Source: Oscillospiraceae bacterium (GTDB lineage Bacteria > Bacillota > Clostridia > Oscillospirales > Oscillospiraceae). From it: a stretch of 64,000 nucleotides of DNA. Each line of letters opens with the position of its first letter. Position 1 is the stretch's first letter. Below the pieces are notes generated by a model. That model worked only from the letters and a program-made list of their open reading frames with translations. It was not told the origin of the DNA and made no database searches. This document shows, piece after piece, positions 15,246-49,049 of the stretch. The translations under genes and the position numbers were made by a program. Where the stretch lies: NCBI GenBank assembly GCA_016292255.1, contig JAEEZZ010000139.1, positions 171 through 64,170 of the forward strand, given 5' to 3'.

Positions 15246-15283
15246 ACGGAATCGGGAATAAATTTCTATGCTATGCAAATAAA

Positions 15284-15320
15284 AGAAAATCGCCGGAAAC
15301 GGCGATTTTCTTTTATTTTC
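15284..15320 (+). terminator. Rho-independent terminator
   Basis: AGAAAATCGCCG (15284-15295), GAAA loop, CGGCGATTTTCT (15300-15311), then TTTTATTTTC. Confidence 0.65.
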
Positions 15321-15392
15321 TTCTTGAAAAAGCTTTGCTTTTGCATTTTTTTGTTATATAATAACAGAAGGATCATGATGGGAGGCAATTTC

Positions 15393-16049
15393 ATGGACTA
15401 CAAGCAGAGTGTGACGATGAATCCCTCCGGCTTTGTGGTGCTGGCGGATTTTGTGCCCAGCATCGTGCAGGAGATCCGTTATCATTCTTCCTACAATTTC
15501 ATCGGAGAGCGCATCGACGGCTACGAGGAACCCGTCGCGCTGCTGACGAAGGAGGCGGCCCGGGCGCTCAAATCCGTGGCCGGGGAGCTGATCGTCCAGG
15601 GCTACCGGCTCAAGGTGTTCGACGCCTACCGCCCGGCCTGCGCGGTGAAGCACTTCGTCCTCTGGGGCATCGAGGACCAGGACGTCCGCATGAAGCCCTA
15701 CTTCTATCCGGAGCTGGAGAAGCAGGAGCTGTTTGCAAAGGGCTATATCGCCAAGCAGTCCAGCCACAGCCGCGGCAGCGCGGTGGATCTGACGCTGCTG
15801 GATATGAAAACCGGCAAGGAAGTGGACATGGGCAGCCCCTTCGACCTGTTCAGCGAGGCCTCCCACCCGGATTACAGAGGCATCACCGACGAACAGTACG
15901 AGAACCGGATGCGCCTGCAGCGGGTGATGCTCCGCAACGGCTTTCAGCCCATCGATTGCGAGTGGTGGCACTTCGCCCTGGCCGACGAGCCCTACCCGGA
16001 CACCTACTTTGCCTTCCCGGTGTCCTCAGGATACCTTCGCAGATCCTGA
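15393..16049 (+). CDS. D-alanyl-D-alanine dipeptidase (VanX/DdpX family, peptidase M15D)
   Basis: I used the start MDYKQSV (ATG at 15393, after GGGAGG). The zinc-site motifs SSHSRGSAVDLTL and EWWHF are present, and the length is typical of VanX. Confidence 0.9.
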   Translation: MDYKQSVTMNPSGFVVLADFVPSIVQEIRYHSSYNFIGERIDGYEEPVALLTKEAARALKSVAGELIVQGYRLKVFDAYRPACAVKHFVLWGIEDQDVRMKPYFYPELEKQELFAKGYIAKQSSHSRGSAVDLTLLDMKTGKEVDMGSPFDLFSEASHPDYRGITDEQYENRMRLQRVMLRNGFQPIDCEWWHFALADEPYPDTYFAFPVSSGYLRRS

Positions 16050-16104: not shown

Positions 16105-16404
16105 ATGCTGAACATCAACAAAACCGTGGAAAACAATACCGCCGCCGTTTCTCTGGAGGGACGGCTGGACACCGTCACCGCGCCGGAGCTGGAGAAGGCT
16201 CTGATGGAGCTCATACCCGATCTGACGGAGCTGAAGCTGGATTTTACCGACCTGGACTACATCTCCTCGGCCGGCCTGCGGGTGCTGCTGGCTGCCCAGA
16301 AGGCGATGAACAAGCAGGGCAGCATGACGCTGACCCATGTCAATGAGGCTGTGATGGAGATCCTGGAGGTCACCGGCTTTACCGACATTCTGACGATCCG
16401 ATGA
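16105..16404 (+). CDS. STAS-domain anti-sigma-factor antagonist (SpoIIAA/RsbV-like)
   Basis: 99-aa ORF. LDFTDLDYISSAGLRVLL carries the conserved phosphorylatable Ser context, and the C-terminus is EILEVTGFTDIL. Confidence 0.9.
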   Translation: MLNINKTVENNTAAVSLEGRLDTVTAPELEKALMELIPDLTELKLDFTDLDYISSAGLRVLLAAQKAMNKQGSMTLTHVNEAVMEILEVTGFTDILTIR

Positions 16405-18563
16405 AGATCATAAAGGGGATCAAGATCGGGGGCCTGCAGCAGAAGATATTCAATCTCATGCTGTTCTTCCTGATTGCGCTGATCGGCGCGTTCCTGGCCA
16501 TTTCCGCCTACCAGCAGAAGAATCTGACCCGCACGGTGCAGGACGCGAACGACAGGCAGCAGAAGTCCATCGAGGCTGTTTCCGAGGAGACGATGCTGGC
16601 GGTGCTGAACAGCACCATGACCCAGACCACCGAGCTGCAGGCCTATATCGCGGACGACCTGTTCTCCCAGGTCCGCTCCGATGTGCTGACGCTGCAGACC
16701 TTTGCCACGGAGCTGTTCACCCATTCGGAGAGCTTCAATGACCATCCCATCGAGCCTCCGTCGGCGCAAAACGACGGGACGCCCACAGCGCAGCTCATCC
16801 ATGAGCAGGGGGTGGATCCGTCCCAGTCTCAGACCCTGGGCCTGGTAGCCCATATGAGCGAGATCATGGTGGCCATGTATGAATCCACCAACACCATCAG
16901 CAGCGTCTACGTGGCCACTGCCGACGGGAACATGGTCCTTGTGAACGACCGCCCCGGCACCTTCATCGGGGACGACGGAGCGGTCCTGACGCTGGACATC
17001 CGTCATCGCCCCTGGTATACCCAGGCGGTGGAGGCCGGGGAGCTGATCTTCACAGGGGTGGAGATGGACGCCTATACCAGCACGCCCATGCTGGTCTGCG
17101 CTGCACCGGTCTATGACGGCGGGAAGCTTGTAGCTGTGGTCGCCGCGGATATCTACCTCACCTCGATCAACGATTACGTGGCCGGCAAGGCCTCCGAGGG
17201 CAGCTTCGTCTGCGTGATCAACGGCAGCGGGCAGATGCTGTTTTCTCCGAAGCAGGAGGGCAGCTTCCGCGTGGAGCTCGCCGCCGACGCCCCCGATCTG
17301 CGAGAGAGCAAAAACCAACAGCTTGCGGCCTTCGTCCGCTCTGCCATGGAGGCCAACACCGGGCTCCGCCTGGTGGAGGTGGACGGGGAATCCTATTATA
17401 TGTGCGGCGCGCCCATGAAGACAGTGGGCTGGACGGCCGTCTCGGTGGTGGATCGGGAGATCACCCGGCAGCCCACCACCGCGCTGCTGAGCAACTATGA
17501 CCGCATCAACGGGGAAGCCCTGTCCACGTTCGAGGACGGCGCGAAGAACTCGGTGCGGACGCTGGTGGTGCTGCTGTCCGTGATCTGCCTGCTGGCGATC
17601 GGCGCTGCGCTGCTGATCGCCTCCAAGGTGGTGCGGCCCATCGAGCATATGACGAAGCGCATCAACGCCCTGAGCGGCAGCGACGGGGTGTTTGAGATGG
17701 AGCCCATCTATCGCACGAAGGATGAGATCGAGGTGCTGGCCGAATCCTTTGCGACCCTGTCCAAGCGGACGAGGGACTACATCACCCAGATCACCCAGAT
17801 CACCGCCGAGAAGGAACGGATCAGCACGGAGCTTTCCCTGGCGACCAAGATCCAGGCGTCCATGCTGCCCAGCATATTCCCGCCCTATCCGGATCGCCCG
17901 GAGTTCGACCTCTTTGCCTCCATGGATCCTGCCAAGGAGGTGGGCGGCGACTTCTATGATTTCTTCCTGGTGGATGACGACCACCTCTGCGTCGTGATCG
18001 CCGACGTCTCCGGCAAGGGTGTTCCCGCGGCCCTGTTTATGATGGCCTCCAAGATCATCCTGCAGAGCTGCGCCATGCTGGGCCAGCAGCCGGCGGAGAT
18101 CCTGACGAAAACCAACGAGGCGATCTGCTCCAATAACCCGGAGAGTATGTTTGTGACGGCCTGGGTGGGCATTCTGGAGATCTCCACCGGCAAGCTGACT
18201 GCCGCCAACGCCGGCCACGAATACCCGATCCTCAAAGCGCCCAACGGCGATTTCGAGGTGTATAAAGACCGCCACGGCCTTGTGATCGGCGGCATGGCGG
18301 GGCTCAGATACCGCCAATATGAGCTGACCATGGAGCCGGGCTCCAAGCTCTTCCTCTACACGGACGGCGTCCCCGAGGCGACGGACGCAAAGCAGCAGCT
18401 TTTCGGCCTGGATCGAACCGTCGCAGCACTGAATGAAGCCAAAAACGAGACGCCCAGGCAGACGCTGAAAACAGTTCGCCGGAAGGTGGACGAGTTCGTG
18501 GAGGACGCCGAGCAGTTCGACGATCTCACCATGCTATGCCTGGAGTATAAGGGAAAGGAATAG
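16401..18563 (+). CDS. Membrane sensor PP2C phosphatase (TM, dCache-like domain, TM, HAMP, SpoIIE/RsbU-type PP2C)
   Basis: 720-aa ORF that overlaps the STAS stop by 4 nt. It has an extracytoplasmic Cache-like region (YVATADGNMVLVND...RPWYTQAVE...), a HAMP domain (VVRPIEHMTKRINALS...) and PP2C motifs (ELSLATKIQASMLP...VGGDFYDFF...VIADVSGKGVPAALFM...TDGVPEA). Confidence 0.9.
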   Translation: MKIIKGIKIGGLQQKIFNLMLFFLIALIGAFLAISAYQQKNLTRTVQDANDRQQKSIEAVSEETMLAVLNSTMTQTTELQAYIADDLFSQVRSDVLTLQTFATELFTHSESFNDHPIEPPSAQNDGTPTAQLIHEQGVDPSQSQTLGLVAHMSEIMVAMYESTNTISSVYVATADGNMVLVNDRPGTFIGDDGAVLTLDIRHRPWYTQAVEAGELIFTGVEMDAYTSTPMLVCAAPVYDGGKLVAVVAADIYLTSINDYVAGKASEGSFVCVINGSGQMLFSPKQEGSFRVELAADAPDLRESKNQQLAAFVRSAMEANTGLRLVEVDGESYYMCGAPMKTVGWTAVSVVDREITRQPTTALLSNYDRINGEALSTFEDGAKNSVRTLVVLLSVICLLAIGAALLIASKVVRPIEHMTKRINALSGSDGVFEMEPIYRTKDEIEVLAESFATLSKRTRDYITQITQITAEKERISTELSLATKIQASMLPSIFPPYPDRPEFDLFASMDPAKEVGGDFYDFFLVDDDHLCVVIADVSGKGVPAALFMMASKIILQSCAMLGQQPAEILTKTNEAICSNNPESMFVTAWVGILEISTGKLTAANAGHEYPILKAPNGDFEVYKDRHGLVIGGMAGLRYRQYELTMEPGSKLFLYTDGVPEATDAKQQLFGLDRTVAALNEAKNETPRQTLKTVRRKVDEFVEDAEQFDDLTMLCLEYKGKE

Positions 18564-18569
18564 AACGCT

Positions 18570-20117
18570 ATGACAGTTCAACTCAAGGGACGGATCGACT
18601 CCTCCAACGCGGCCCGGATGGAGCAGGAGCTCCTGCAGCAGGTGAACGGACAGAGCGAGGTCGTGCTGGACGCGGCGGAGCTCGCGTATATCTCCAGCGC
18701 CGGCCTGCGCGTCATTCTGCGGATCCGGAAGGATCACCCCACGCTGCGTATCGTCAACGTCAATGCCGACGTGTATGAGATCCTGGACATGACCGGCTTT
18801 ACCGACATGATGTCGGTGGAGAAGGCCTACCGGGTGGTCTCCGTAGAGGGCTGCGAGGAGATCGGCCACGGAGCCAACGGCACCATCTACCGCATCGACA
18901 GGGACAACGTGGTCAAGGTCTACAATAACCCCGAGGCGCTGGAGGATATCCAGCACGAGCGGGAGGTGGCCAAGCTGGCCCTGATCCTGGGGATCCCCAC
19001 GGCCATTTCCTACGACGTGGTCAAGGTGGGGGACAGCTACGGCTCCGTGTTTGAGCTGCTCAACGCCAGCTCCTTCGCCGAGATCCTGGCAAAGGAGCCG
19101 GAAAAGCTGGATTGGTGCGTGGCGGAATACGTGAAAATGCTCCGGCTGATCCACGATACGCCGGTTCCCGCCGGGAAGCTCCCGGACGTGAAGGAAACGG
19201 CGATGAGCTGGGTGACGTATTTGCAGAACTATTTGCCCCAGAGCGCCTGGGACAAGCTGGTGTCGCTGGTGGAGGCTGTGCCCCACGACGACCACATGAT
19301 CCACGGGGACTACCATACCAAGAACCTGGAGCTGCAAAACGGCGAGGTCCTGCTCATCGACATGGACACCCTTGCGGTGGGCAATCCCATCTTCGAGCTG
19401 GCGTCCATGTACAACTCCTTTGTGGGCTTCTATGAGATCGACCATGATGCCATCAAGCAATTCCAGGGCTATGACTGGGAGACCGGCCGGAGCTTCTGGC
19501 GCAAATCCCTTGCGGCCTATCTGGACACCCAATGCCAGGCAAAGATCAAAGAGGTGGAAGACAAGGCCCGCGTGCTGGGATATTCCCGTTTGCTCCGCCG
19601 CGCCATCCGCCTCGGCGGCCTGGACGACGAGAAGAAACGGGCAGAGATCGAGCTCTGGAGATCAGAGCTGCTGGAGCTGCTGGAAAAGACGGATACGCTG
19701 ATGTTCGACCGGAACGAGCTGGAGCTTGAGGCGGTCAAGGAGAATCTGGATGACGTGATCGCCTTTCTGGAGGAGCGGCTCGCAGGCACCAACTGTACCC
19801 CGAAGGCGCTGATGCAGATCAATCTGGCTGTGGAGGAGATCTTCGTCAACATTGCCAGCTACGCCTACAGGCCGGAGACCGGCAAGGCCACGGTGCGCTT
19901 CGAGGTCTCGGAGGAACCGGTCACAGTTACGATCACCTTCCTGGATCACGGGGTCCCCTATGACCCGCTGGCAAGGCAGGATCCGGACGTGACCCTCCCC
20001 GCGGAGGAGCGGGACATCGGCGGCCTGGGCATCTTCCTGACCAAGCAGATCATGGACGATGTGAGCTACGAATACTGCCGCGGGCAGAACATCCTGCGGA
20101 TCAAGAAAACCGTGTAA
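18570..20117 (+). CDS. Three-domain fusion: STAS domain, APH/choline-kinase-like phosphotransferase domain, and RsbW/SpoIIAB-like HATPase_c domain
   Basis: 515-aa ORF. The N-terminal STAS has AELAYISSAGLRVIL...YEILDMTGFTDMM. The middle has a kinase-fold Gly loop plus Lys (IGHGANGTIYRI...VVKVY) and a Brenner motif IHGDYHTKNL plus IDMD. The C-terminus has an N-box-like LAVEEIFVNIASYAY, a G1-like FLDHGVPYDP and a G2-like GGLGIFLTKQIMDDVSY. Confidence 0.85.
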   Translation: MTVQLKGRIDSSNAARMEQELLQQVNGQSEVVLDAAELAYISSAGLRVILRIRKDHPTLRIVNVNADVYEILDMTGFTDMMSVEKAYRVVSVEGCEEIGHGANGTIYRIDRDNVVKVYNNPEALEDIQHEREVAKLALILGIPTAISYDVVKVGDSYGSVFELLNASSFAEILAKEPEKLDWCVAEYVKMLRLIHDTPVPAGKLPDVKETAMSWVTYLQNYLPQSAWDKLVSLVEAVPHDDHMIHGDYHTKNLELQNGEVLLIDMDTLAVGNPIFELASMYNSFVGFYEIDHDAIKQFQGYDWETGRSFWRKSLAAYLDTQCQAKIKEVEDKARVLGYSRLLRRAIRLGGLDDEKKRAEIELWRSELLELLEKTDTLMFDRNELELEAVKENLDDVIAFLEERLAGTNCTPKALMQINLAVEEIFVNIASYAYRPETGKATVRFEVSEEPVTVTITFLDHGVPYDPLARQDPDVTLPAEERDIGGLGIFLTKQIMDDVSYEYCRGQNILRIKKTV

Positions 20118-20136: not shown

Positions 20137-21108
20137 ATGAAACACAAAACGCTGAAAACACTTCTTGTGGCGGGGATCATTTTGGCCTGGATGCTGAGCT
20201 TCGCCGCCTGCACGGACGCCAAAACAAGCGCCGAAACCACCAAGGCGACAAAGCACGAGGCATCGCCGTCGGAGACGGAAGCCCAGAAGCTCCAGGCGCA
20301 GCTTGCCCAGCTGGAGCGGGAGCTTTCCGACGTGAAGGCGGAGCGGGATACGCTCCAAACCCGGCTGCAGGAATGCGAGGGCAAGCTCACCCAGACCCAG
20401 AGCGACCTGGCGGAGGCCAATGCGGCCCTGGAGGAGCTGGCGGATACCGCCGTGACGATGGAGGAGCTGACCGCCGAATACAAGTGCTACAAGAACGTCA
20501 TTTCCCAGGAGGAGGTCAGGAAGACCCTGTTCGGCCAGCCCATCTCCGAGGAGCGCAGCGGCGAATACCGCATCGGCATCGAGACGGCCATCGACGGGGA
20601 TTTTCATGCCAAGCTGACGGTCTATCAGGCCCAGGGCGGCAAATACGTGGAGGTCTTCTCCTGCGATGCCGTGGTGGGCAAAAACGGCCCCGGCAAGCAG
20701 TCTGAGGGCGATACCAAAACGCCCCTCGGCACCTGGACGGTGGGCGAGGCCTATGGCATCAAGGAGGATCCGGGCAGCCTGCTGCCCTACACCCAGGTCA
20801 CCGACGATATGTACTGGTGCGCCACCGGCTCCAACGGCAAAAAGTATAATACCCTGATCTACAAGAGCGACGACCCGGACAACGACTACAGCGAGGACGA
20901 GCATCTGGCGGACTATACCGTTCCGTATGCCTACCTCCTGGATCTGGGATACAACGCTTCCTGCGCGCCGTACGCGGGCAACGCGATCTTCCTGCACTGC
21001 TGGAAGGGGCCGGACTACCCCACCGGCGGCTGTGTGGGTGTTTCCGAGGAAAGCATGATCAAGATCCTCCAGACCATCACTCCCGGCACCTCCGTGACGA
21101 TCTACTGA
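20137..21108 (+). CDS. Lipoprotein L,D-transpeptidase (YkuD/ErfK family) with an N-terminal coiled coil
   Basis: 323-aa ORF with a lipobox (LSFAAC). The coiled coil is roughly aa 45-110. The C-terminal catalytic region has GKNGPGKQSEGDTKTPLGTW...IFLHCWKGPDYPTGGCVGV (an H...GC motif). Confidence 0.8.
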   Translation: MKHKTLKTLLVAGIILAWMLSFAACTDAKTSAETTKATKHEASPSETEAQKLQAQLAQLERELSDVKAERDTLQTRLQECEGKLTQTQSDLAEANAALEELADTAVTMEELTAEYKCYKNVISQEEVRKTLFGQPISEERSGEYRIGIETAIDGDFHAKLTVYQAQGGKYVEVFSCDAVVGKNGPGKQSEGDTKTPLGTWTVGEAYGIKEDPGSLLPYTQVTDDMYWCATGSNGKKYNTLIYKSDDPDNDYSEDEHLADYTVPYAYLLDLGYNASCAPYAGNAIFLHCWKGPDYPTGGCVGVSEESMIKILQTITPGTSVTIY

Positions 21109-22074: not shown

Positions 22075-23604
22075 ATGTTTGAAAGCATCTTGTCACGTTC
22101 CGATATGATCCGCTGTGTGCTCTGCCAGGACGCGCCCTGCAGCTCCGCCTGCACCCGGCTCGACCCTGCCGCGCTGCTGCGGGGCATCTGGTTTCGCAAT
22201 GACAAGACGGCGGCGCTCAGGCTCCCGGAGTCCGACTGCTGCCGGGGCTGTGACGCGCCCTGCGAGGCAGCCTGCGTCCGGCCCCATGAGGTTCCGATCC
22301 AAGGCTTGATGCTGCGGCTTCGGGAGGAACTGCGCCCCAGGCTGGAGCTGCCCCTTCCGGAGGACGAAGGTCTCCTTCGCACGGAGCTCTGCGGCGTTCC
22401 GCTGGAGAACCCCTTCCTGCTTTCCTCCTCGGTGGTTGCCAGCACCTACGATATGTGCGCCAGGGCCTTCGAGGCGGGCTGGGCAGGCGCTTGCTTCAAA
22501 ACCATTTGCTCCTTTGAGATCCATGAGGCTTCGCCGCGATTCTCCGCCATCACCGGGGACAACGGCAGCATCATCGGCTTCAAGAATATCGAGCAGCTCT
22601 CCGACCACAGCGTTGCGGAGAACATGATTATTTTCCGCCGTCTGAAGCAGAACTATCCCACCAAATTCATTCTGGCCTCCATTATGGGGCAGAACGACGC
22701 CGAGTGGGAGGAGCTGGCGCGCCAATGCGAACAAAGCGGCGCGGACGCCATTGAGCTGAACTTCTCCTGCCCCAATATGGCGGACGGGGGCCTGGGCTCG
22801 GATATCGGCCAGGTCCCGGAGCTGGTGGAGCGCTTCACCGCCGCAGCCCGGCGGGGGACAAAGCTGCCGATCCTTGCAAAGCTGACGCCAAACGTGGCCT
22901 CCATGCTCCCCGCAGGGGAGGCTGCCCGGCGCGGCGGCGCAGACGGGCTCGCGGCCATCAATACCATCAAAAGCATCACCGGGATCAATCCCCATACCTA
23001 CGTCTCCGCGCCTGCGGTGCACGGGATGTCAGCCGTGGGCGGCTACAGCGGAAACGCGGTGAAGCCCATTGCTCTGCGCTTTCTGGCGGAGCTGGGGCAG
23101 GATCCCGCCCTGGCCGGAATGCATATCAGCGGCATGGGCGGGGTGGAGACCTGGCGGGATGCCCTGGACTTCATTCTCCTGGGTGCGGGAAGCATCCAGG
23201 TCACCACGGCTGTCATGCAGTACGGCTACCGGATCATAGAGGATCTGAAGGCCGGCTTGAATTACTATCTGGCGGAGAAGGGCTTCCGAAGCGTAAAGGA
23301 GGCCGTGGGCCTGGCGCTGAGCACCGTCAGCGAGACGACGGACGTCCTGGAGCGGGATACCGTTGTTTTGCCGAAATTCCTGCGGGAAAAATGCGTCGGC
23401 TGCGGCCGCTGCGCCATCTCCTGCGCGGACGGCGGCCACCAGGCCATCCGTCTGAACGGGGAGCGGAGGCCGATGCTCAACGGCAAACGCTGCGTCGGCT
23501 GCCATCTGTGTGTGTTGGTGTGCCCCCAGAACGCGATCCGTCCCGGCAGAAAGCGGATCACAAAGCCGAAGACGGAAGAGAACTCTGACAGGGAAGTGAA
23601 CTGA
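22075..23604 (+). CDS. Dihydroorotate/dihydropyrimidine dehydrogenase-like flavoprotein (PreA-like) with a C-terminal 2x[4Fe-4S] ferredoxin domain and an extra N-terminal Cys-rich segment
   Basis: 509-aa ORF. It has a TIM-barrel core (LENPFLLSSSV...IELNFSCPNM...GGVETWRDALDFILLGA) and a C-terminal CxxCxxCxxxC motif twice (CVGCGRCAISC, CVGCHLCVLVCP). The N-terminus has CVLCQDAPCSSAC and CCRGCDAPCEAAC. Confidence 0.8.
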   Translation: MFESILSRSDMIRCVLCQDAPCSSACTRLDPAALLRGIWFRNDKTAALRLPESDCCRGCDAPCEAACVRPHEVPIQGLMLRLREELRPRLELPLPEDEGLLRTELCGVPLENPFLLSSSVVASTYDMCARAFEAGWAGACFKTICSFEIHEASPRFSAITGDNGSIIGFKNIEQLSDHSVAENMIIFRRLKQNYPTKFILASIMGQNDAEWEELARQCEQSGADAIELNFSCPNMADGGLGSDIGQVPELVERFTAAARRGTKLPILAKLTPNVASMLPAGEAARRGGADGLAAINTIKSITGINPHTYVSAPAVHGMSAVGGYSGNAVKPIALRFLAELGQDPALAGMHISGMGGVETWRDALDFILLGAGSIQVTTAVMQYGYRIIEDLKAGLNYYLAEKGFRSVKEAVGLALSTVSETTDVLERDTVVLPKFLREKCVGCGRCAISCADGGHQAIRLNGERRPMLNGKRCVGCHLCVLVCPQNAIRPGRKRITKPKTEENSDREVN

Positions 23605-23605
23605 G

Positions 23606-25360
23606 ATGATAAAAAAGCTGTTCCGGCAGATGCTGGTGACCCAGATCGTTTCCTCCATGACCGTGACCCTTTGTATGCTGATCGACAGTATCATGATCGG
23701 CCGCTTTCTCGGGGTGGATGCCATGAGCGCCTACGGGCTGGCAAGCCCGCTGCTGTTGGTCTTTGCCGCCTTCGGCAGTCTGATCTCCTCGGGCGTGCAG
23801 GTCATGTGCGGAAAGACCGTCGGCGCGGGGGACCGGGAGGCCACCGACGCCTGCTACACGGTGTCTGTGCTGCTGGCAGCCGGGATCTCCGCAGTGGGTC
23901 TGATCCTGGTGTTCCTGTTCCTGGGCCCGCTGACGAGCCTGCTGGGCGCGGGGGAGCCCGGCCCGAACAACCCGGTCTTCGGGCTGACCAAGGACTATAT
24001 CACCGGCTTTATCATCGGCGCGCCCGCATTCCTTTGCGCCCAGATCATGGTGCCCTATATGCAGCTGCTGGGCAGCCGTACCAGGCTTGTGGCGGCAGTG
24101 ATCGCCATGACCGCGGCGGACATCGCCCTGGATCTTCTGAACGTGTTCGTATTCGAGGGCGGGACGCTGGGCATGGGCCTGGCCTCCACCGTGAGCTATT
24201 ACATTGCCGTTGGGGTGGGCGCAGGCGTCTTCCTGCGTAAGGACTGTATGTTCCGCCTCCGGCCCCGGCTGTTTCAGCGGAAGGTATGTCGGGAGCTGGC
24301 CTCCTACGGCGTTCCCACGGTGGTGAATCAGATCAGCATGGTGTTCCTGGTATTCCTGCTGAACCGTCTGCTTCTGAGCGTGGAGGGGACGGTTGCGGTC
24401 GCCGCCTATTCCGTGATCTCCACAGTGGGCAATATCTGCTATTGCTTCGGCTCCGGCACGGGCTCGGTGGCCATGATGCTGGCGGCGATCTTCTATGCGG
24501 ATCGGGACAGAACCTCCATCCGGGAGCTGGTGCGGGTCATGACCCGCAGCGCCGTGGTGCTGGATGTGGCCGTTACGGTGGTGGGTCTGCTGGCCGCCAC
24601 GCCGCTGATCACCCTGTTCCTGGGCCAGGACGTGGGCGCGAAAGCCATCGCGGTCTTCGGTCTGCGGCTGTTTGTGCTGTCCATCCTGCCCTCCTCGCTG
24701 AACTCCACCTTCAAGAACTACTACCAGGGTGTCAACCGCCTGCGGCTCACGGAGCTGATTTCCGTCCTGCAGAACTTCGTCTACCCGGTGGCCTTTGCCT
24801 ATCTGCTCAGCCGTTTCCTCGGCGTGACCGGCATCTGGCTCGGCTTCGTCTGCGGCGAGACGGCCACGCTTCTCAGCTTCTCCGTCCTGGTCTGGCGGCA
24901 TCATGGCGGCTTCTCCCTGTCCGCCGATGCCTACAGTATGCTGGATCCGACCTTCGGCGCCGCGCCGGAGCAGTGCTTCGAGCGCACGATCCAGTCTGCG
25001 GAGGAGGCGGTAGAGGCCTCCGAGCAGATCTGCGCGTTCTGCAGATCCCGGGAGATCGACCGGAAAACCGCCATGCTGATCGGCCTGAGCGTGGAGGAAA
25101 TGACAGTCAACATCATTGAGCACGGCTTCACCAAGGACAGCCGGGAGCACAACGTAGACGTCCGCCTGGTGCTGGAGCAGGACAGCCGGGTCATCCGCAT
25201 CCGGGATAACTGCGTCAGCTTCGACCCGACCAAGTATCTGGAGCTGCATCATTCCGACGACCCTGCCGCCCACATCGGCCTGCGTATGGTGATGGGCATG
25301 ACGAAGGAAGCCTTTTATATCAACACCCTTGGCCTGAACAATCTGACGCTGACAATGTAA
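23606..25360 (+). CDS. MATE-family efflux transporter fused to a C-terminal RsbW/SpoIIAB-like HATPase_c domain (G1 box degenerate)
   Basis: 584-aa ORF whose ATG is 1 nt after the PreA-like stop. About 12 TMs with MATE-like repeats fill aa 1-435. The C-terminal 146 aa or so (24920-25357) has an N-box LSVEEMTVNIIEHGF, a G1 position reading IRDNCVSFDP (no Gly) and a G2-like HIGLRMVMGMTKEAFY. Confidence 0.8.
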   Translation: MIKKLFRQMLVTQIVSSMTVTLCMLIDSIMIGRFLGVDAMSAYGLASPLLLVFAAFGSLISSGVQVMCGKTVGAGDREATDACYTVSVLLAAGISAVGLILVFLFLGPLTSLLGAGEPGPNNPVFGLTKDYITGFIIGAPAFLCAQIMVPYMQLLGSRTRLVAAVIAMTAADIALDLLNVFVFEGGTLGMGLASTVSYYIAVGVGAGVFLRKDCMFRLRPRLFQRKVCRELASYGVPTVVNQISMVFLVFLLNRLLLSVEGTVAVAAYSVISTVGNICYCFGSGTGSVAMMLAAIFYADRDRTSIRELVRVMTRSAVVLDVAVTVVGLLAATPLITLFLGQDVGAKAIAVFGLRLFVLSILPSSLNSTFKNYYQGVNRLRLTELISVLQNFVYPVAFAYLLSRFLGVTGIWLGFVCGETATLLSFSVLVWRHHGGFSLSADAYSMLDPTFGAAPEQCFERTIQSAEEAVEASEQICAFCRSREIDRKTAMLIGLSVEEMTVNIIEHGFTKDSREHNVDVRLVLEQDSRVIRIRDNCVSFDPTKYLELHHSDDPAAHIGLRMVMGMTKEAFYINTLGLNNLTLTM

Positions 25361-25414: not shown

Positions 25415-27346
25415 ATGAAAGAGATCTATTTTCATATTTGCGCCATCCCTCTGTTCACTATGATCCTGATCGTCTGCTATTCCAGAAAGATGACCAAGGG
25501 AAACGCCAATCGCCTCTTCCTTGCGATGACCGTACTGTCGCTGATCAGCACTGTGGCGGATCTGATCATGGTGATTCTGTCCTATCAGCTGCCTTTGACC
25601 GACGCAGAGCGCTTGCTGGATGAGGTGCTGGGCTACGTCTACCTTTCCCTCCACAACCTTACAAACGTTGTAATCCTGCTGTTCCTTCTGTCTCTGACCC
25701 GCATGACCTCGCTGATCCAGAAAAAACGGATCAAGTTCGTCATCAGTCTGCCGTATGTTCTGATCGTCGCTTTTTTGATCCAGAACATCTTTACCCATAC
25801 CATTTTTTCCGTTACGTCTGAGGCAGGATATGCGCGGGGCGTGCTGATGCCGATGATCTACATCATGGCCGCGCTGTACGGCATCGGCGGCCTGGGCTAC
25901 TGCATCTATTCCAAGCGCTTTCTTGCGAAGAACAAGTGGGTTTCTCTGCTGTGTATGTATCTGCTGTCCTATTTCGCTGTTGCGGTCCAGTTTTTCAAGC
26001 CCAAGCTCCTGCTGGAAATGTTCTGCAACGGCCTTGGGATTATGGGCGTCATGCTGTCGGTGATGCGCCCGGAGGAGCGCATGGACAGCATGGTGGGCAT
26101 GGAAAGCTGGAAATCCTACCGGGAGGATCTCCGCAATATCCTTCGCTCCGGCGAGCAGGTGGCCATCGTCGTCATTCGGCTGCCGAATTCCCGGGAGATC
26201 CTCAGCTTCCTGGGGGAGCACAAGTACAACGATTATGTGTCCGAGATCGGAAATGCGCTGCGCGCCCTTCCCTGGAATCACCCGAACCACGTGGAGCTCT
26301 ACTTCGAACGTCCGGGCACGATCTATCTGATCGTGGACAAGGACGAGAAGGAGATGGAGTCGATCGGAGACCGCCTGTATGCGGAGCTTGGGATCCGGCT
26401 GCAGGAATACGCGGCCAACGGCGTTCGCTTCGAGCCGCAGGTGTGCCTGATCCGCTGCCCGGATGATCTGAAGAAGGCGGAGGACATCATCAGCCTGGGC
26501 CATATGTTCTATACCTTCGACAGCGGCAGGGAGAACACCTTCCAGGCAAAGGAGCTCGTTTCCTCCCGGGTCTTTGCCATCCGCTCGCACATGGAGGAGA
26601 TCCTCAAACGCGCCATCCAGGAACAGAATATCGTGATGCACTACCAGCCGATCTACGACGTCCGTACGGGCTGCTTCCACTCTGCGGAGGCCCTGGCCCG
26701 CATTGTGGATCCGGAATTCGGTCTGATCTCTCCCGGCATCTTTATTCCCGCGTCGGAGGAGCTGGGCCTGATCGTCCACATCGGCGACGAGGTGCTGGAG
26801 CAGGTGTTCCGCTTTATTTCCGAGCATGACCTGGAGGCCCTGGGGCTGGAATACATAGAGATCAACCTGTCCGTGGCCCAGTGTATGCAGAGCGTGCTTC
26901 CGGAAAAGATCCGTCATTTGCAGCAAAAATACAACGTAGATCCGCGCCATGTCAATCTGGAGATCACCGAAACGACCTTTGAGAACATCAGCGAGGTGGT
27001 GATGGAGAATGTCCATGAGCTGATCCGCATGGGCTATACCTTCGCGCTGGACGATTATGGCATTGGATATTCCAGCATCCAGCGGGTCAATCATTTCCCG
27101 CTGAAGCTGATCAAAATCGATAAGAGTATGCTGGACGAGGTCTCCTCCAGAAACGGGCGGATGATCCTGGAGCATACGGTGCATATGATGCGGAGCATTG
27201 AGAAGCAGCTCGTGGTGGAGGGCGCGGAGACCCGTGTCGCCGTGGATCTGCTGAAGAAAATGGACTGCGATTATATCCAGGGCTACTATTTCTCCCGGCC
27301 GCTTCCCGCAGAGGACTTTGTCCGCTTCCTGGAAGAACACAAATAA
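25415..27346 (+). CDS. Membrane EAL-domain protein (polytopic N-terminus, degenerate GGDEF-like linker domain, EAL c-di-GMP phosphodiesterase)
   Basis: 643-aa ORF with about 7 TMs at the N-terminus. EAL motifs are YQPIYD...SAEALARI...EITET...ALDDYGIGYSS...KIDKS...VVEGAETR...QGYYFSRP. No GGDEF signature occurs in the middle domain. Confidence 0.85.
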   Translation: MKEIYFHICAIPLFTMILIVCYSRKMTKGNANRLFLAMTVLSLISTVADLIMVILSYQLPLTDAERLLDEVLGYVYLSLHNLTNVVILLFLLSLTRMTSLIQKKRIKFVISLPYVLIVAFLIQNIFTHTIFSVTSEAGYARGVLMPMIYIMAALYGIGGLGYCIYSKRFLAKNKWVSLLCMYLLSYFAVAVQFFKPKLLLEMFCNGLGIMGVMLSVMRPEERMDSMVGMESWKSYREDLRNILRSGEQVAIVVIRLPNSREILSFLGEHKYNDYVSEIGNALRALPWNHPNHVELYFERPGTIYLIVDKDEKEMESIGDRLYAELGIRLQEYAANGVRFEPQVCLIRCPDDLKKAEDIISLGHMFYTFDSGRENTFQAKELVSSRVFAIRSHMEEILKRAIQEQNIVMHYQPIYDVRTGCFHSAEALARIVDPEFGLISPGIFIPASEELGLIVHIGDEVLEQVFRFISEHDLEALGLEYIEINLSVAQCMQSVLPEKIRHLQQKYNVDPRHVNLEITETTFENISEVVMENVHELIRMGYTFALDDYGIGYSSIQRVNHFPLKLIKIDKSMLDEVSSRNGRMILEHTVHMMRSIEKQLVVEGAETRVAVDLLKKMDCDYIQGYYFSRPLPAEDFVRFLEEHK

Positions 27347-40894: not shown

Positions 40895-42217
40895 TCAGTC
40901 GATCACAGTGGTGTAGTAGGTGGTGGTCGTGCCGCCGGTGGTGGTCTGCTTCCAGAAGTACAGGCCGGTGGGAGCGGAGGAGTTCACCATGAAGTACTTG
41001 TTGGAGGAGAAGGCCAGGTAGGGATAGCGGCTGCTGGCGCTGTTGGCAGCGGTCACGTTGCTGCCGCTGATGGACAGGCTCCACTGGCAGTAGCTGGAGG
41101 AGTAGCTGGAGCGGCTGTAGAGGTAGCTGCTGTAGCTGCCCAGGTAGGTGTTGGTGGAGGCGTTCCGGATGCTGTACTTGGAGCCGGTGGAGGCCACGTT
41201 GAACACGTAGGCGTCGGTGGCGCCGGTCAGCACGTCGCCGGAGCAGGTCATGCCGGTGTTGGCAATGGCCACAGCGCCGCCCGCGGAAGCGGATTCATAC
41301 TTGGTGTTGCCGGACAGGCCCTTCAGCACGTACATACTGCCGGTGTTGGTGCCGTAGGTGATGACGTAGCTGCCGGTCCAGTCGGAGGGAGCGGAGCTCA
41401 GCTTCTGGTAGCCTGTGCCGCTGCTGCCGGAGGTGGAGGTGTAGGAGTACAGAGCCCGCAGCGTCACGTTGCCGGTGACCCGGTAGGAGCCGGTGAGGAT
41501 GTTGCCGGGCTGGGTGGTGGAGTTGTTCACCGCAGCGGTGACCCAACCCAGGAAGGTGTAGCCGGCGGGAGCCGCAGCGGTGGGCAGGGTGACGGTGCTG
41601 CCCGCAGTCACGGTCTGGCTGGCGGGAGCGGTGACGCCGTTGGGCACGGAGTAGCTCACCGTGTAGGTGGTCTCAGGCTCGGGGGTGGAGGCGCTGGGGC
41701 TGGTGGTGTAGTAGGTGGTGCCGGTGGCAGTCGCCTTCCACAGCCGGAGCACGTTGGCGTTGTTGGTGCTGGCGGACCAGAAGTACTTGTTGCTGGTGGA
41801 GAAGCCGAAGTAGGGGTAGCTGCCGTTGGCGTAGTTCTTCAGCTGAGCAGCGCCGCTGGAGTTGACCGCAGGCGTCCATCTGCAGTAGGAGGAGTTGTAG
41901 CTGGTGTAGCCGGCCAGGTAGGAGCTGGAGTTCATGCCCATGTAGACGCCGGTAGAAGCGCTCTGCAGGGTGTAGTAGCTGCCGGTGGCGGCCAGGGTGA
42001 AGACGTAAGCGTCGGAGACGTTGGACAGGGTGTTGTTGGACAGGCTCATGCCGGTGGAGGCGTAGGTGGAGGCATTGTTGCTGTTTTCAATCTGGCTGCC
42101 GTTGGAGCTGGGGGTGACGCCCTTCAGCACGTACATATTGGTGGAGTTGCCGTTGGTGATGACGTAGTTGCCGGCCCAGGTGGAGGGCGTGGAGCTCACC
42201 AGCTGGTAGACGTTCTC
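40895..42217 (-). repeat. Copy 1 of a direct repeat of about 1.3 kb shared by the two protease genes (3-prime stalk region)
   Basis: Long runs are identical by eye to 44352-45653, e.g. CAGGTAGGGATAGCGGCTGCTGGCGCTGTTGGC and GATGGACAGGCTCCACTGGCAGTAGCTGGAGGAGTAGCTGGAGCGGCTGTA. The encoded modules look roughly 85-90 percent identical by eye, which I have not computed. Confidence 0.8.
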
Positions 42218-44224
42218 GCCGCCGTTGCCCTCGGTGCGGGCGTAAACGGCGTACAGCGTGACGTTGCCGCTGGGGGTGTAGGAGCCGCTCAGAACAGCGG
42301 GACGGGTGGTGGTCTCGGCGACGGTGTTGGCAGCCCAGCCCACGAAGCTGTAGCCGCTCACAGCGGTGGCCGTGGTGGGCAGCGTCACAGATTCGCCCTG
42401 GTAGCAGCTCAGGGTGTTGTAGGTGGCGCCGTTGGCCTTCAGGGTCACGGTGTACTGGGTCTTGGCGGCGAAGTTGATGCGAACCGTGCAGTCAGAGGAG
42501 GGGTTCACCGTGAAGGTGTTGCCGTTCTGGGTGACGGTGGCGGTGCCGCTGGTGACGGTGTAGCCCGCCGCGTAGTAGCCGGTCTTCGGGCTGGCGGTGA
42601 TCACGTTGCCGCTGATGGAAACGGTGCCGTAGCCGGTGTTGTTGGAGACGGCGGTCACCGTGTAGGTGGGCGCGGGCGTGGAGTTGACCTTGATGCCGAA
42701 GTATCTGAGGCTGGAGCTGGCGCCGGAGGGAGGATTGTAGACGCCGTTCACGGGCTTGACGGTGATGGAGCCGCCGCCCTTGATGGAGCAGCTGGAGCCG
42801 GTGAAGACCACGGGAGCCAGCAGGTCGTAGGGGCTCTGAACGTCATGATACTTGCTGGGATCGTAGCCGTTCTGCACCTTGAAGCCGTAGATGCCGTTGT
42901 AGTCGCTCTGGGCCGCGTTGGCGGTGACAGCGATGCGGAAATCCCGAACCAGATCGGCGCAGCTCACGCCGGTGGCGTTGGTGATGGCGGAGACGTCGCT
43001 GGAGGAGAACTTGTTGGAGATCTGTCTGTAGATGGTGTTGCCGAATCTGGAGTACAGATACTGGGCGAAGAAGGAGACCTGGGAGTAGAGCGCCAGGATA
43101 TCGCTCAGGTTGTTGTTCCAGGCGTACATGGAGTAGCCGTTGTGCAGGTTGTAGCTGGACTGATACTTGAACTCGGAGGGAGGATTCAGCCAGTCGTTGT
43201 TGTCGGCGTAGTAGTAGTTTTCCCAGGACTGGATGCGGCTGACAAGGGAGCTGCCGGGATAGCAGATCTCCTCGGCCGCGGCGGAGAAGCACTCGTTGAG
43301 CCAGGTGCTCATGCCGCTGGTGTTGGAGTAGTTGATCAGGTGCTGATACTCATGGACCATGGTGTTGTAGGTGGTGTCCATGCTCTTGTATTCAGTGCCG
43401 CTGGAATTCTTGTAGTAGACGCCGGGGTAGGTGTCGATGTTCAGGATGGGCAGGCCGTTGTTGGAGATGTCCACCTGGTAGAAGAAGCCGGCGATGTAAC
43501 CCTGGCCGGGCTGCCAGCCGTCGTTGATGTTGTAGTACAGCATATGCAGCTTGCCGTCGCCGGAGGAGCCGTTGGTGTGGTTGCCGAAGGAGGACTGCAT
43601 CAGGCTGAACTTGGAGTCGAACTCATCGGCGGCCTTCTTGGCGAAGCTGGAGTCGATGGTATCCAGGGGGTAGGTGTTGTTGGCGGAAGAGCTGGGGGTC
43701 CAGATGTAGCAGTGCTGGCCCACGTACAGGCACTTGAACTGCACGCTGCCGCTGCCGGTGGGGGAGTAGGTGGAGTAGATGTTGAAGGTCTTGGTGGAGC
43801 CAACGTTATAGGAAGCTCTGGTGGGGACGGGCTCCTTGATGACCGCGGTCTTGGCTTCCTCAGCCATCAGCGGATCCACGTCGAGCTTGAAGGGACGGGC
43901 TTCGTCCCGGGCGGCCCGGAGGAGCTCGGCGTTGGCGTTTGCGTTGGTGTTGACGGTGGTCTCAATGAGGCCGGTCATGGTGCCGGTGGAGGCGGAGCTG
44001 CTGGAGCTGGTGGAGGGGTTGTAGATCACAACGTAGTCGCCCTCGTAGCCGCCGGCGGCGTCAGAGTCTACTACGATCCCGGAGTATACGGCGCGTACCT
44101 GGGAGCTGACGGCCTCGGCGCGTTCACCCGTCTGTGCGCCCACAGCGGGAACCATCAGGCTTCCCATCAAAGCGAGGATCAAAAACAGAGAGAGCAGATG
44201 ACGAAATGTATGGTGATGCAGCAT
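40895..44224 (-). CDS. Giant secreted HExxH zinc metalloprotease (possibly M30/hyicolysin-like head) with InlB-B-like and Listeria-Bacteroides repeats and two copies of an unknown module of about 160 aa
   Basis: I used the start MLHHHTFRHLLSLFLILALMGSLMVPAVGA (ATG at 44224, AAAGGAG 7 nt upstream; the track start is a TTG inside the SD). The zinc motif TMVHEYQHLINY is at 43340-43354. The stalk has YTVTAVSNNTGYGTVS..., two Flg_new-type repeats (...GYSFVGWA..., ...GYTFLGWV...) and two W.G.YVIT...LWK modules. There is no LPXTG, SLH or choline-binding tail. Confidence 0.8.
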   Translation of the reverse strand: MLHHHTFRHLLSLFLILALMGSLMVPAVGAQTGERAEAVSSQVRAVYSGIVVDSDAAGGYEGDYVVIYNPSTSSSSSASTGTMTGLIETTVNTNANANAELLRAARDEARPFKLDVDPLMAEEAKTAVIKEPVPTRASYNVGSTKTFNIYSTYSPTGSGSVQFKCLYVGQHCYIWTPSSSANNTYPLDTIDSSFAKKAADEFDSKFSLMQSSFGNHTNGSSGDGKLHMLYYNINDGWQPGQGYIAGFFYQVDISNNGLPILNIDTYPGVYYKNSSGTEYKSMDTTYNTMVHEYQHLINYSNTSGMSTWLNECFSAAAEEICYPGSSLVSRIQSWENYYYADNNDWLNPPSEFKYQSSYNLHNGYSMYAWNNNLSDILALYSQVSFFAQYLYSRFGNTIYRQISNKFSSSDVSAITNATGVSCADLVRDFRIAVTANAAQSDYNGIYGFKVQNGYDPSKYHDVQSPYDLLAPVVFTGSSCSIKGGGSITVKPVNGVYNPPSGASSSLRYFGIKVNSTPAPTYTVTAVSNNTGYGTVSISGNVITASPKTGYYAAGYTVTSGTATVTQNGNTFTVNPSSDCTVRINFAAKTQYTVTLKANGATYNTLSCYQGESVTLPTTATAVSGYSFVGWAANTVAETTTRPAVLSGSYTPSGNVTLYAVYARTEGNGGENVYQLVSSTPSTWAGNYVITNGNSTNMYVLKGVTPSSNGSQIENSNNASTYASTGMSLSNNTLSNVSDAYVFTLAATGSYYTLQSASTGVYMGMNSSSYLAGYTSYNSSYCRWTPAVNSSGAAQLKNYANGSYPYFGFSTSNKYFWSASTNNANVLRLWKATATGTTYYTTSPSASTPEPETTYTVSYSVPNGVTAPASQTVTAGSTVTLPTAAAPAGYTFLGWVTAAVNNSTTQPGNILTGSYRVTGNVTLRALYSYTSTSGSSGTGYQKLSSAPSDWTGSYVITYGTNTGSMYVLKGLSGNTKYESASAGGAVAIANTGMTCSGDVLTGATDAYVFNVASTGSKYSIRNASTNTYLGSYSSYLYSRSSYSSSYCQWSLSISGSNVTAANSASSRYPYLAFSSNKYFMVNSSAPTGLYFWKQTTTGGTTTTYYTTVID

Positions 44225-44303
44225 ATAGATACTCCTTTTCAAATTTCAGATTGGTTTTTCTATTGAATTGCGCTGCGTAGGACGTTTCGTTCGTCTGGGA
44301 AAG

Positions 44304-44351: not shown

Positions 44352-45653
44352 TCAGGTGGTGTAGTAGGTGGTGGAGCTGCCGCCGGTGGTCTGCTTCCAG
44401 AAGTACAGGCCGGTGGGCACAGAGGAGCTCACCATGAAGTAGTTGCTGGAGGCGAAGGCCAGGTAGGGATAGCGGCTGCTGGCGCTGTTGGCGGCGGTCA
44501 CGTTGCCGCTGCTGATGGACAGGCTCCACTGGCAGTAGCTGGAGGAGTAGCTGGAGCGGCTGTACAGGTAGGAGTTGTAGCTGCCCAGGTAGGTGCCGGT
44601 GGACTTGTTGCGGATGGTGTACTTGGAGCCGGTGGAGGCGATCTCGAACACGTAGGCGTCGGTGACGTCAGTGAGCTTGCCGTCGGCGTAGGTCATGCCG
44701 GTGTTGCTGTACAGGACAGCGCCGCCCGCGGAGGCGGACTCATACTTGGTGTTGCCGGACAGGCCCTTCAGCATATAGAGGCTGCTGGTGTTGGTGCCGT
44801 AGGTGATGACGTAGTTGCCGGCCCAATCGGTGGGCGCGGAATCCAGAAGCTCATAGGCGGTGCCTTCGCCGGAGGTGGAGGTGTAGGAATACAGAGCCCG
44901 CAGCGTCACGTTGCCGGTGACCTTGTAGGAGCCGGTGAGGATGTTGCCGGGCTGCGTGGTGGAGTTGTTCACCGCGGCGGTGACCCAGCCCAGGAAGGTG
45001 TAGCCGGCGGGAGCGGCGGCAGTGGGCAGGGTGATGTAGCTGTTGGCGGCAGCCGTCTGGCTGGCGGGAGCAGTGATACCGCTGGGAACGGAGAAGCTGA
45101 CGGTGTAGTTGGTTACGGGAGCGGCAGAGCCGATCTCGGTGGTGTAGTAGGTGGTGCCGCCGGCGGTCTGCTTCCACAGACGGAGCACGTTGGCGTTGTT
45201 GGTGCTGGCAGACCAGAAGTACTTGCTGCTGGTGTTGAAGCCGAAGTACGGATAGCTGCCGTTGGCGTAGTTCTTCAGCTGAGCAGCGCCGCTGGAGTTG
45301 ACAGCGGGGGTCCATCTGCAGTAGCTGGAGTTGTAGCTGGTGTAGCCGGCCAGGTAGGAGCTGGAGTTCATGCCCATGTAGGTGCCGGTGGCAGCGCTCT
45401 TCACGGTGTAGTAGCTGCCGGTGGCATCCAGGGTGAAGACGTAGGCGTCCGCCACGTTGGTCAGAGCGTTGTTGGACAGGCTCATGCCGGTGGAGGCGTA
45501 AGCGGTGGCATTGGAGCTGGCCTCGATCTCAGCGCCGTTGGAGCTGGGGGTCACGCCCGTCAGCACGTACATACTGGTGGAGTTGCCGTTGGTGATGACG
45601 TAGTTGCCGGCCCAGGAGGAAGGCGTGGAGCTCACCAGCTGGTAGGCGGAAGC
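44352..45653 (-). repeat. Copy 2 of the direct repeat of about 1.3 kb shared by the two protease genes
   Basis: See copy 1. The off-frame shadow ORFs of the two regions in the track are also near-identical (MEPVHQRQQRDRCQQRQQPLSLPG vs MEPVHQQRQRDRRQQRQQPLSLPG). Confidence 0.8.
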
Positions 45654-48713: not shown

Positions 48714-49049
48714 GGGGTAGGTCTCCTCTTTCATAAAAATTTTTGCTGTGCGTCTTCCGGACGCCAGCGTAGCAATCATAGCACTAAGATCGAAAAAAGT
48801 CCACAGATTATACATAAATTTTCGTAAAATATTCAGTATTTTTTTGTTCAATATGCCGAATATTAAAAAACGGAGCAGAGTTTTAAAAATGTTTTAACGC
48901 TATGTGTTTTTGTTGTGGAGACAAGGAAAAAATGTGTTTTTTGTGTGAAGATTTCAGAGCTGCAAAAATGAATAGAAACAGGAAGCCGCAGCTTCCGAGG
49001 ATCCAAAAAATGAATACTGTTTTTTTGCCTGCGGAGCCCCCATGGCCGC

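Follow-up and report, generated by a model that had tools for sequence, protein, structure and literature searches.

How a regulatory switch might be wired to an enzyme is the question raised by one gene of the window, that is, of the whole 64,000-nucleotide stretch of Oscillospiraceae DNA analysed here (contig JAEEZZ010000139.1). The gene encodes a single polypeptide in which a STAS domain, an APH/choline-kinase-fold domain and an RsbW-like ATPase domain of the HATPase_c_2 family follow one another, and we refer to its product as the fusion. Partner switching is a textbook mode of sigma-factor control and, to our knowledge, only a few cases of its direct action on an enzyme are known. Our analysis leads us to propose, with a probability of roughly 55%, that the fusion is the output protein of a partner-switching cassette without a sigma factor, in which the state of STAS would gate the kinase and a phosphohydrolase of the PHP or HD type would erase its product. 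The initial annotation of the gene had seen in it an auto-regulated switch, with an antagonist and its kinase in cis around a second kinase. The domains and motifs on which that idea was built stood up to analysis; its self-containment did not, and what emerges instead is a conserved cassette with a separate free-standing STAS protein, a sensor phosphatase of the PP2C type and a PHP/HD phosphohydrolase, together with an ancestry in a two-domain family.

Domain architecture of the fusion protein

The three domains assigned to the fusion at the outset are all recovered by Pfam well over the gathering cutoffs (Table 1). The match to APH (PF01636), for instance, covers residues 95-287 with an expectation value (E) of 1.8e-14 and 54.5 bits, against a cutoff of 23.2. 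The motifs named with them are likewise intact in the translated DNA. The putative phospho-acceptor of the STAS domain, S43 (codon 18696-18698), lies within YISSAGLRV (18687-18713), and it aligns with the phospho-acceptor Ser58 of Bacillus subtilis SpoIIAA. The key residues of the APH domain comprise a Gly loop (G99/G101), K116, HGDYHTKN (residues 245-252) and IDMD (residues 263-266), the stretch from HGDYHTKN to IDMD being encoded at 19302-19367, and the ATPase domain has an N box (E422/E423/N427), a G1 box (D459/G461) and a G2 box (G484-G487), with EEIFVNIASYAY encoded at 19833-19868. Pfam detects no PP2C domain on the 515-amino-acid (aa) fusion, the PP2C domain being encoded by a separate upstream gene.

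The scores against narrower models stay far under their cutoffs. The fusion obtains 36 bits against the RsbW equivalog of NCBIfam (cutoff 145) and 19.4 against SpoIIAB (cutoff 135), and its SpoIIAA match is also weak and far under the equivalog cutoff. TIGR02172, which describes APH-like paralogs of Fibrobacter, is matched by the kinase core with an E of 1.8e-25 and 90.1 bits, under its cutoff of 228.2; the JGI annotation of relatives nonetheless reads 'TIGR02172 family'. Sequence matches in the PDB are to single domains only, namely a STAS protein, RsbW (6m36, matched by the C-terminal domain, E 7e-5) and a hygromycin kinase. Searches of the PDB by sequence and with Foldseek gave domain-level matches only, and returned no full-length solved structure or characterised homologue of the fusion.

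The AlphaFold2 model of the fusion, built with the alignment of relatives described below (A1), has a mean predicted local distance difference test score (pLDDT) of 88.9 and a predicted template modelling score (pTM) of 0.81. Because this model shows no disordered linker, the fusion is predicted to be a compact, rigid body of three domains. Foldseek comparison of the model with the PDB recovered the central kinase domain only (E about 5e-9, target-normalised template modelling score (TMt) 0.5-0.62, identity 12-17%), and the matches are the capreomycin, APH(2''), amicoumacin, hygromycin, methylthioribose and choline/ethanolamine kinases, with their helical substrate subdomain. These matches agree with the small-molecule-type kinase fold first suggested for the central domain, which the model predicts to be bilobal and of the APH type.

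Conservation and distribution of the three-domain protein

Alignment A1 comprises 73 three-domain proteins of 48-80% identity, and the catalytic and regulatory residues are invariant throughout: S42, S43, A44, G45, L46 and R47 in STAS; G99, G101, K116, E130, E132, H245, D247, N252, D264 and D266 in APH; and E422, E423, N427, D459, G461 and G484-G487 in the ATPase domain. A search of a protein database of 5.8 billion sequences yielded at least 8000 candidates for the fusion query. The best 120 matches are full-length, 70-99% identical and identical in their layout of three Pfam domains, the closest being 99% identical across the full length, and the picture was the same when a 51%-identical relative served as the query. 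The three-domain architecture is not rare, and its thousands of database sequences carry generic names, being labelled 'anti-sigma factor antagonist' or 'ATP-binding protein' by automatic annotation. Searches of the literature on the architecture and on partner switching found no publication on the STAS-APH-HATPase_c_2 arrangement and no characterised example, in line with what the initial annotation had stated.

In the loci fetched for this work, 142-143 distinct three-domain genes were counted, with a frame length of 515-527 aa and from many independent assemblies. Since the reading frame recurs in more than 140 distinct loci of rumen and gut Clostridia, the gene is not an artefact, and the sequencing-derived joining of separate genes that had been raised as a concern at the start is ruled out.

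A scan of one genome per species returned 190 relatives, the best 80 of which are 64-77% identical over the whole length and come nearly all from metagenome-assembled genomes (MAGs) of rumen or gut Clostridia and Erysipelotrichia. The MAGs with fusions of 64-77% identity are labelled Oscillospiraceae, Lachnospiraceae, Anaerovoracaceae/Mogibacterium, Erysipelotrichaceae/Solobacterium and, in one case, Spirochaetales, and nearly all are of ruminant origin. Such similarity across taxa would point either to horizontal transfer among members of the rumen community or to mis-binning. In the plasmid database PLSDB, matches were found at the level of the HATPase domain only, and the full-length fusion was not among them.

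The two-domain STAS-APH family and its independent fusions

Exhaustive searching with HMMER among representatives at 50% identity placed the fusion within a much broader family. It returned 809 clusters at E <= 1e-30, and few of the top matches have three domains; most are of about 390 aa and correspond to query residues 1-379, which hold the STAS and APH domains. Across 117 such two-domain sequences (33-55% identity), S43, G101, K116, H245, N252 and D264 are invariant. A search with a two-domain profile gave at least 8000 candidates, and all 120 of the matches listed have two domains. In a neighbour-joining tree of the STAS-APH region, the 25 non-redundant three-domain sequences all fall into one clade, nested among 142 two-domain sequences. 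Judging from these comparisons, two-domain STAS-APH is the ancestral and much larger family and the conserved unit, and the RsbW-like domain is a late, lineage-specific fusion to it, the corresponding kinase of other relatives being encoded separately or fused to PP2C.

The genes around distant two-domain members are consistent with such an origin. Their census covers about 15 loci; it is small because a metagenome scan with the two-domain alignment gave mostly close three-domain relatives. One of these loci (L085) encodes STAS, a free HATPase_c_2 protein of 135 aa, HD_4 and STAS-APH. In another, a 5TMR_LYT-SpoIIE-HATPase_c_2 protein is encoded about 2 kb upstream, followed by HD_4, STAS-APH and STAS, and a third has STAS, SpoIIE-HATPase_c_2 and STAS-APH. 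At additional short two-domain loci, PHP or HD_4 adjoins. The free HATPase_c_2 protein of L085 shares 56% identity with the C-terminal domain of the fusion, the figure for B. subtilis RsbW being 26%.

The same parts have also been joined to one another in other ways. Among the family representatives there is a permuted HATPase_c_2-STAS-APH protein (P0127), two proteins with an N-terminal HD_4 domain (HD_4-STAS-APH; P0254 and P0265) and a STAS-APH-PHP protein (P0126). Four further arrangements are each known from a single 50%-identity representative on a short metagenome contig: HD-CE-STAS-APH (P0206), STAS-APH with a PolyA_pol head, a nucleotidyltransferase (P0245), a Na+/H+ exchanger-STAS-APH protein (P0221) and STAS-APH fused to a YezG-like domain (P0153). 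These independent fusions link HATPase_c_2, HD_4, PHP and STAS-APH to one another. Those that join the kinase to HATPase_c_2, HD_4 or PHP amount to a map of its partners and hence make hypotheses on the family directly testable in vitro.

Genomic neighbourhoods of the three-domain relatives

In the window, the fusion gene belongs to a cluster on the + strand with intergenic spacings of -4 to 67 nucleotides (nt). A PP2C gene begins with a 4-nt overlap of the stop of a free-standing STAS gene, and 6 nt separate its end from the fusion gene; the free STAS protein bears the same YISSAGLRV motif as the fusion. These companions recur. Of 71 loci with at least 3 kb of flank on both sides, 66 encode at least one partner-switch protein within 3 kb of the fusion; taken singly, free STAS is present in 56 of these loci, PHP in 54, PP2C in 37 and MATE in 17. 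With a different detection and without the 3-kb limit, free STAS is found near the fusion in 66 of 73 loci. The open reading frame (ORF) directly upstream encodes PP2C in 50 of 115 cases (20 of them with dCache_1 and 11 with HAMP) and free STAS in 29, whereas the one directly downstream encodes PHP in 66 of 109 cases, HD or HD_4 in 5-6, and HD_3 or YfbR-like HD-type nucleotidases in 2.

Other neighbours are recurrent without belonging to this core. A MATE transporter with a HATPase tail was detected by tblastn in 20 of 73 loci, about a quarter of the relatives, and VanX-like M15 in 13 of 73; VanX-like M15, VanY, DUF218 and YkuD genes all recur near relatives. No sigma-factor domain appears among the 25 commonest families listed for the ORFs directly upstream and downstream, and none is encoded over the 6-8 kb around the gene at loci with annotation.

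A particular case is that of three 78% identical relatives of the fusion (L001, L002 and L003), in whose loci only fragments (7589..7991 in L001) and a 73-aa ORF are left of the PP2C gene between free STAS and the fusion gene. The phosphatase seems to have been lost in this lineage, whereas STAS, the fusion gene and PHP were kept.

Proposed mechanism and candidate substrate

Beyond the domain identities, the conserved catalytic residues, the conserved cassette and the independent gene fusions described above, we infer as follows which component phosphorylates which, in what direction regulation runs and what the substrate is. The RsbW-like domain would bind and phosphorylate the serine of STAS, be it its own S43, that of the free STAS protein, or both, and the dCache-HAMP-PP2C phosphatase would strip this phosphate upon sensing an extracytoplasmic ligand. 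The phosphorylation state of STAS and its binding partner would then gate the central kinase, the switch consisting in the competition of free and fused STAS for the RsbW-like domain. Once active, the kinase would phosphorylate a hydroxyl of a small substrate. The partner gene probably removes this phosphate again, through the PHP phosphoesterase in the window and through a SpoT-type HD_4 hydrolase in relatives. The gene order of L085 (STAS, RsbW-like, HD_4 plus STAS-APH) parallels that of rsbV-rsbW-sigB, with the enzyme pair at the place of the sigma factor, and this order suggests the fused STAS domain as the handle by which the RsbW-like module would hold its output.

With regard to the substrate, our leading guess, a tentative one, is the 2' or 3' hydroxyl of the ribose of a nucleotide or of an RNA end. 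The guess is made by analogy, because the nearest solved relatives of PHP and HD_4 act on ribose phosphates, and because CcrZ, an APH/choline-kinase-fold regulator of Firmicutes, phosphorylates ribose. The best NCBIfam match of the PHP protein is to 3',5'-nucleoside bisphosphate phosphatase (E 1.9e-32, under the cutoff) and its PDB matches include 3e0f (E 1e-30), 2yb1 and the 5'-3' exoribonuclease 7ug9; for the HD_4 partner, the nearest solved relatives are Rel/SpoT hydrolases, MESH1 and small alarmone hydrolases. More speculatively still, STAS-APH and PHP/HD_4 might form a writer/eraser pair, turned on and off by a switch that would read an extracellular signal by way of the dCache-PP2C protein, either for a ribose-phosphorylated nucleotide serving as a new alarmone or second messenger or for the reversible phosphorylation of RNA or tRNA ends, with HATPase_c_2 as a portable STAS-receiver module attached here to a kinase and there to a MATE transporter.

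Several observations weigh against a partner-switched kinase with a dedicated eraser acting on nucleotides. The closest structures found by Foldseek are those of antibiotic kinases and not of nucleotide kinases, and the substrate is inferred only from the usual activity of the partner hydrolase families. The MATE, VanX-like dipeptidase, DUF218 and YkuD neighbours fit a cell-envelope or antibiotic theme as well. PP2C lies near only about half of the loci. For PHP/HD the fraction is still only about two thirds to three quarters, with 66-74 of 109 when the ORF directly downstream is counted and 54 of 71 within 3 kb. Of the seven two-domain loci flanked by at least 3 kb on either side, three lack any partner-switch gene over that distance. 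Finally, the sampling is phylogenetically narrow, the loci being nearly all on rumen or gut MAG contigs.

Comparison with known systems

In the RsbV-RsbW-RsbU/P and SpoIIAA-SpoIIAB-SpoIIE modules of B. subtilis, as in the cassette, the genes are tightly linked in an operon and encode a STAS protein whose phospho-serine is conserved, a serine kinase of the GHKL (HATPase_c_2) type that has the N, G1 and G2 boxes, and a PP2C phosphatase bearing a sensor at its N-terminus. Unlike them, the cassette has no sigma factor; the output protein itself includes the RsbW-like kinase as a domain, the output enzyme is joined to a second STAS, and the equivalog scores stay far under cutoff. The classical hallmark of partner switching, a sigma factor as the sequestered output, was not seen at the examined loci.

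The closest functional precedent for a STAS-fused enzyme under a partner switch is All4160 of Anabaena, a STAS-glycosyltransferase in which, as its authors report, RsbW-like kinases phosphorylate STAS and a phosphatase reverses it, so that an enzyme rather than a sigma factor is controlled; its partners are the phosphatase HenR and the kinase Alr3423 (bioRxiv 10.64898/2026.04.08.717354). The fusion and All4160 both have an N-terminal STAS joined directly to an enzyme, but the latter differs in its glycosyltransferase output, in its unfused kinase, in having no eraser hydrolase and in belonging to another phylum. The presence of STAS and an RsbW-type kinase in cis is also precedented. Rv1364c of Mycobacterium tuberculosis (PAS-PP2C-kinase-STAS) carries both kinase domain and STAS substrate on one chain and, according to work reviewed in PMC9138534, undergoes intramolecular phosphorylation and phosphorylation-dependent domain switching; it differs in containing a phosphatase, in regulating SigF, in its domain order and in having no enzyme between kinase and STAS.

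The small-molecule kinases of the APH fold (APH(2''), APH(4), the capreomycin, amicoumacin and methylthioribose kinases, and CcrZ) share with the fusion the bilobal fold, the Gly loop and Lys, the HxDxxxxN catalytic loop and the Mg-binding Asp. The fusion is set apart from them by a structural identity of 12-17%, by its sub-cutoff TIGR02172 score and by the STAS and HATPase_c_2 domains that flank its kinase. A looser analogy is provided by Rel/SpoT and by toxic alarmone synthetase/hydrolase pairs, in which a phosphoryl writer is genetically paired with, or fused to, an HD_4 eraser; the HD_4 partner belongs to the hydrolase family of Rel/SpoT and of the small alarmone hydrolases (PMC9765508). 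The likeness is one of analogy only. The Rel/SpoT writer has the nucleotidyltransferase fold of RelA/SpoT instead of that of an APH kinase, and the eraser in the window is a PHP protein.

The three domains of the fusion are ordinary, and what we regard as new is the enzyme as output, the fusion of the RsbW-like kinase to that output and the dedicated eraser hydrolase. Sequences of the family number in the thousands among Firmicutes of the rumen and gut, and in them an intact kinase of the small-molecule type would be placed under a switch and coupled to a phosphohydrolase. Identifying the substrate of the kinase could uncover a regulated metabolite or a nucleotide signal that is new, or else a new mechanism of post-translationally induced resistance, in an ecologically important and poorly studied group, and working out the family would correct the misleading labels under which its members are now filed.

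Alternative explanations

The structural matches to capreomycin, APH(2''), amicoumacin and hygromycin kinases open the way to a different reading, in which the cassette would be a switched defence against antibiotics or xenobiotics: the dCache-PP2C protein would sense the compound, and dephosphorylated STAS would activate an inactivating kinase and a MATE exporter. The extracytoplasmic dCache sensor of the phosphatase, the MATE-HATPase_c_2 protein encoded in the window cluster and near 17-20 of about 72 relatives, and the recurrence of VanX-like M15, VanY, DUF218 and YkuD genes nearby would all fit. A cytoplasmic PHP or HD_4 protein, co-conserved and sometimes fused to the kinase, would, however, undo a detoxifying phosphorylation. 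The structural identity to antibiotic kinases is only 12-17%, and MATE and M15 are found in just 18-29% of loci as against about 75% for PHP. We consider this reading, the main rival of our own, unlikely. We give still less credence to the possibility that the APH-fold domain is a protein kinase of the CotS/YihE kind, directed at the STAS serine or at another protein, with HATPase_c_2 serving mainly as a binding partner. The invariance of S43 even in two-domain relatives is in its favour, as are weak side matches in Pfam and NCBIfam to Pkinase, Bud32 and CotS, and the two-domain loci without a nearby partner-switch gene, three of seven, lack by the same token an RsbW-like gene within 3 kb. Yet the N, G1 and G2 boxes of HATPase_c_2 are invariant, as in an active kinase; the two-domain relatives with long annotated flanks do have RsbW-like genes; the fold matches are all to small-molecule kinases with a helical substrate subdomain; and the PHP and HD partners would be left unexplained.

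Homology of the C-terminal domain to RsbW and SpoIIAB, together with the database label 'anti-sigma factor antagonist', would be accommodated by a classical anti-sigma system, in which the RsbW-like domain sequesters a sigma factor encoded elsewhere, the STAS domains are antagonists and APH has a sensory or accessory role. This is improbable in view of the missing sigma-factor gene, both within 6-8 kb in annotated loci and among the 25 commonest adjacent families listed, and of scores far under the RsbW and SpoIIAB equivalog cutoffs (36 bits against 145 for the former), and the invariant catalytic residues of APH argue for catalysis and not for a passive role. The chance that assembly or sequencing joined separate genes is vanishingly small, that idea being already refuted by the 515-527-aa frame in 142-143 loci and by a model without a disordered linker. 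The sigma-factor-free cassette with a gated small-molecule kinase is the reading that we retain.

The gene cluster of the window

The features of the cluster are collected in Table 1.

Table 1. Genes of the + strand cluster and domains of the fusion protein, with window coordinates
Feature	Coordinates	Strand	Evidence or remark
VanX-like D-Ala-D-Ala dipeptidase (Peptidase_M15)	15273..16049	+	NCBIfam VanX E 2.2e-60, under cutoff
Free-standing STAS protein, 99 aa, RsbV-like	16105..16404	+	Pfam STAS E 1e-15; TIGR00377 above cutoff
Membrane sensor phosphatase, 720 aa, TM-dCache_1-TM-HAMP-PP2C (TM, transmembrane)	16401..18563	+	SpoIIE E 1.9e-51; dCache_1 E 1.8e-19; HAMP
STAS-APH-HATPase_c_2 fusion gene	18570..20117	+	ATG start; 515 aa; three Pfam domains
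Fusion, N-terminal STAS domain, residues 2-84	18573..18821	+	Pfam STAS E 2.6e-12; PDB 4hyl E 1.4e-7
Fusion, APH/choline-kinase-fold domain with helical C-terminal subdomain, residues 95-~380	18852..19709	+	Pfam, Foldseek
Fusion, C-terminal RsbW-type GHKL Ser-kinase domain, residues 388-513	19731..20108	+	HATPase_c_2 PF13581 E 3e-24
Lipoprotein-like coiled coil plus YkuD L,D-transpeptidase	20137..21108	+	Pfam YkuD E 1.7e-11
TrpH/YciV-like PHP phosphoesterase, 289 aa	21138..22007	+	Pfam PHP
PreA-like dehydrogenase (dihydropyrimidine dehydrogenase subunit)	22075..23604	+	
MATE transporter with C-terminal RsbW-like HATPase_c_2	23606..25360	+	MatE E 6e-28; HATPase_c_2 E 1.1e-9
EAL c-di-GMP phosphodiesterase, ~390-aa N-terminal region without Pfam match	25415..27346	+	last gene of the same-strand cluster

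The YkuD gene separates the fusion from PHP only in the window; in relatives no YkuD gene adjoins the fusion and PHP mostly follows directly, so the YkuD gene is peripheral and stands outside the conserved core. The HATPase_c_2 tail of the MATE transporter retains the N box and has degenerate G1 and G2 boxes (DNC, and HIGLRM in place of GGLGxF). Judging from these residues, the tail may be a STAS receiver for the free STAS protein that binds without catalysis, and the transporter is a probable second receiver of that protein. At the upstream end, the longest VanX-like ORF contains a hairpin at 15277..15318 (+), which has a stem of 19 bp and precedes a T-run; the true start of this gene is probably near 15375-15393, with the hairpin as the terminator of an upstream unit. 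A promoter and terminator scan of the cluster gave no excess over shuffled sequences and no notable internal terminator, and no Rfam family was found in the window. PADLOC at E <= 0.01 returned no match for the fusion, STAS, PP2C, PHP, MATE-HATPase or HD_4 proteins.

The PreA-like gene encodes an extra Cys-rich N-terminal region of about 100 aa, and the gene occurs also in the cassettes of the closest relatives, at 10509..12014 in L001, at 4541..6037 in L005 and in L066. Its recurrence hints once more at a theme of nucleotides or pyrimidines.

Well away from the cluster, at 40895..44242 (-) and 44352..48851 (-), the window has genes for two predicted surface proteins of very large size, 1115 and 1499 aa. 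Papain-like Peptidase_C1, lectin-like and Listeria-Bacteroides repeat domains are present in the larger, and the region of both proteins coincides with a strong + strand GC skew of about +0.25.

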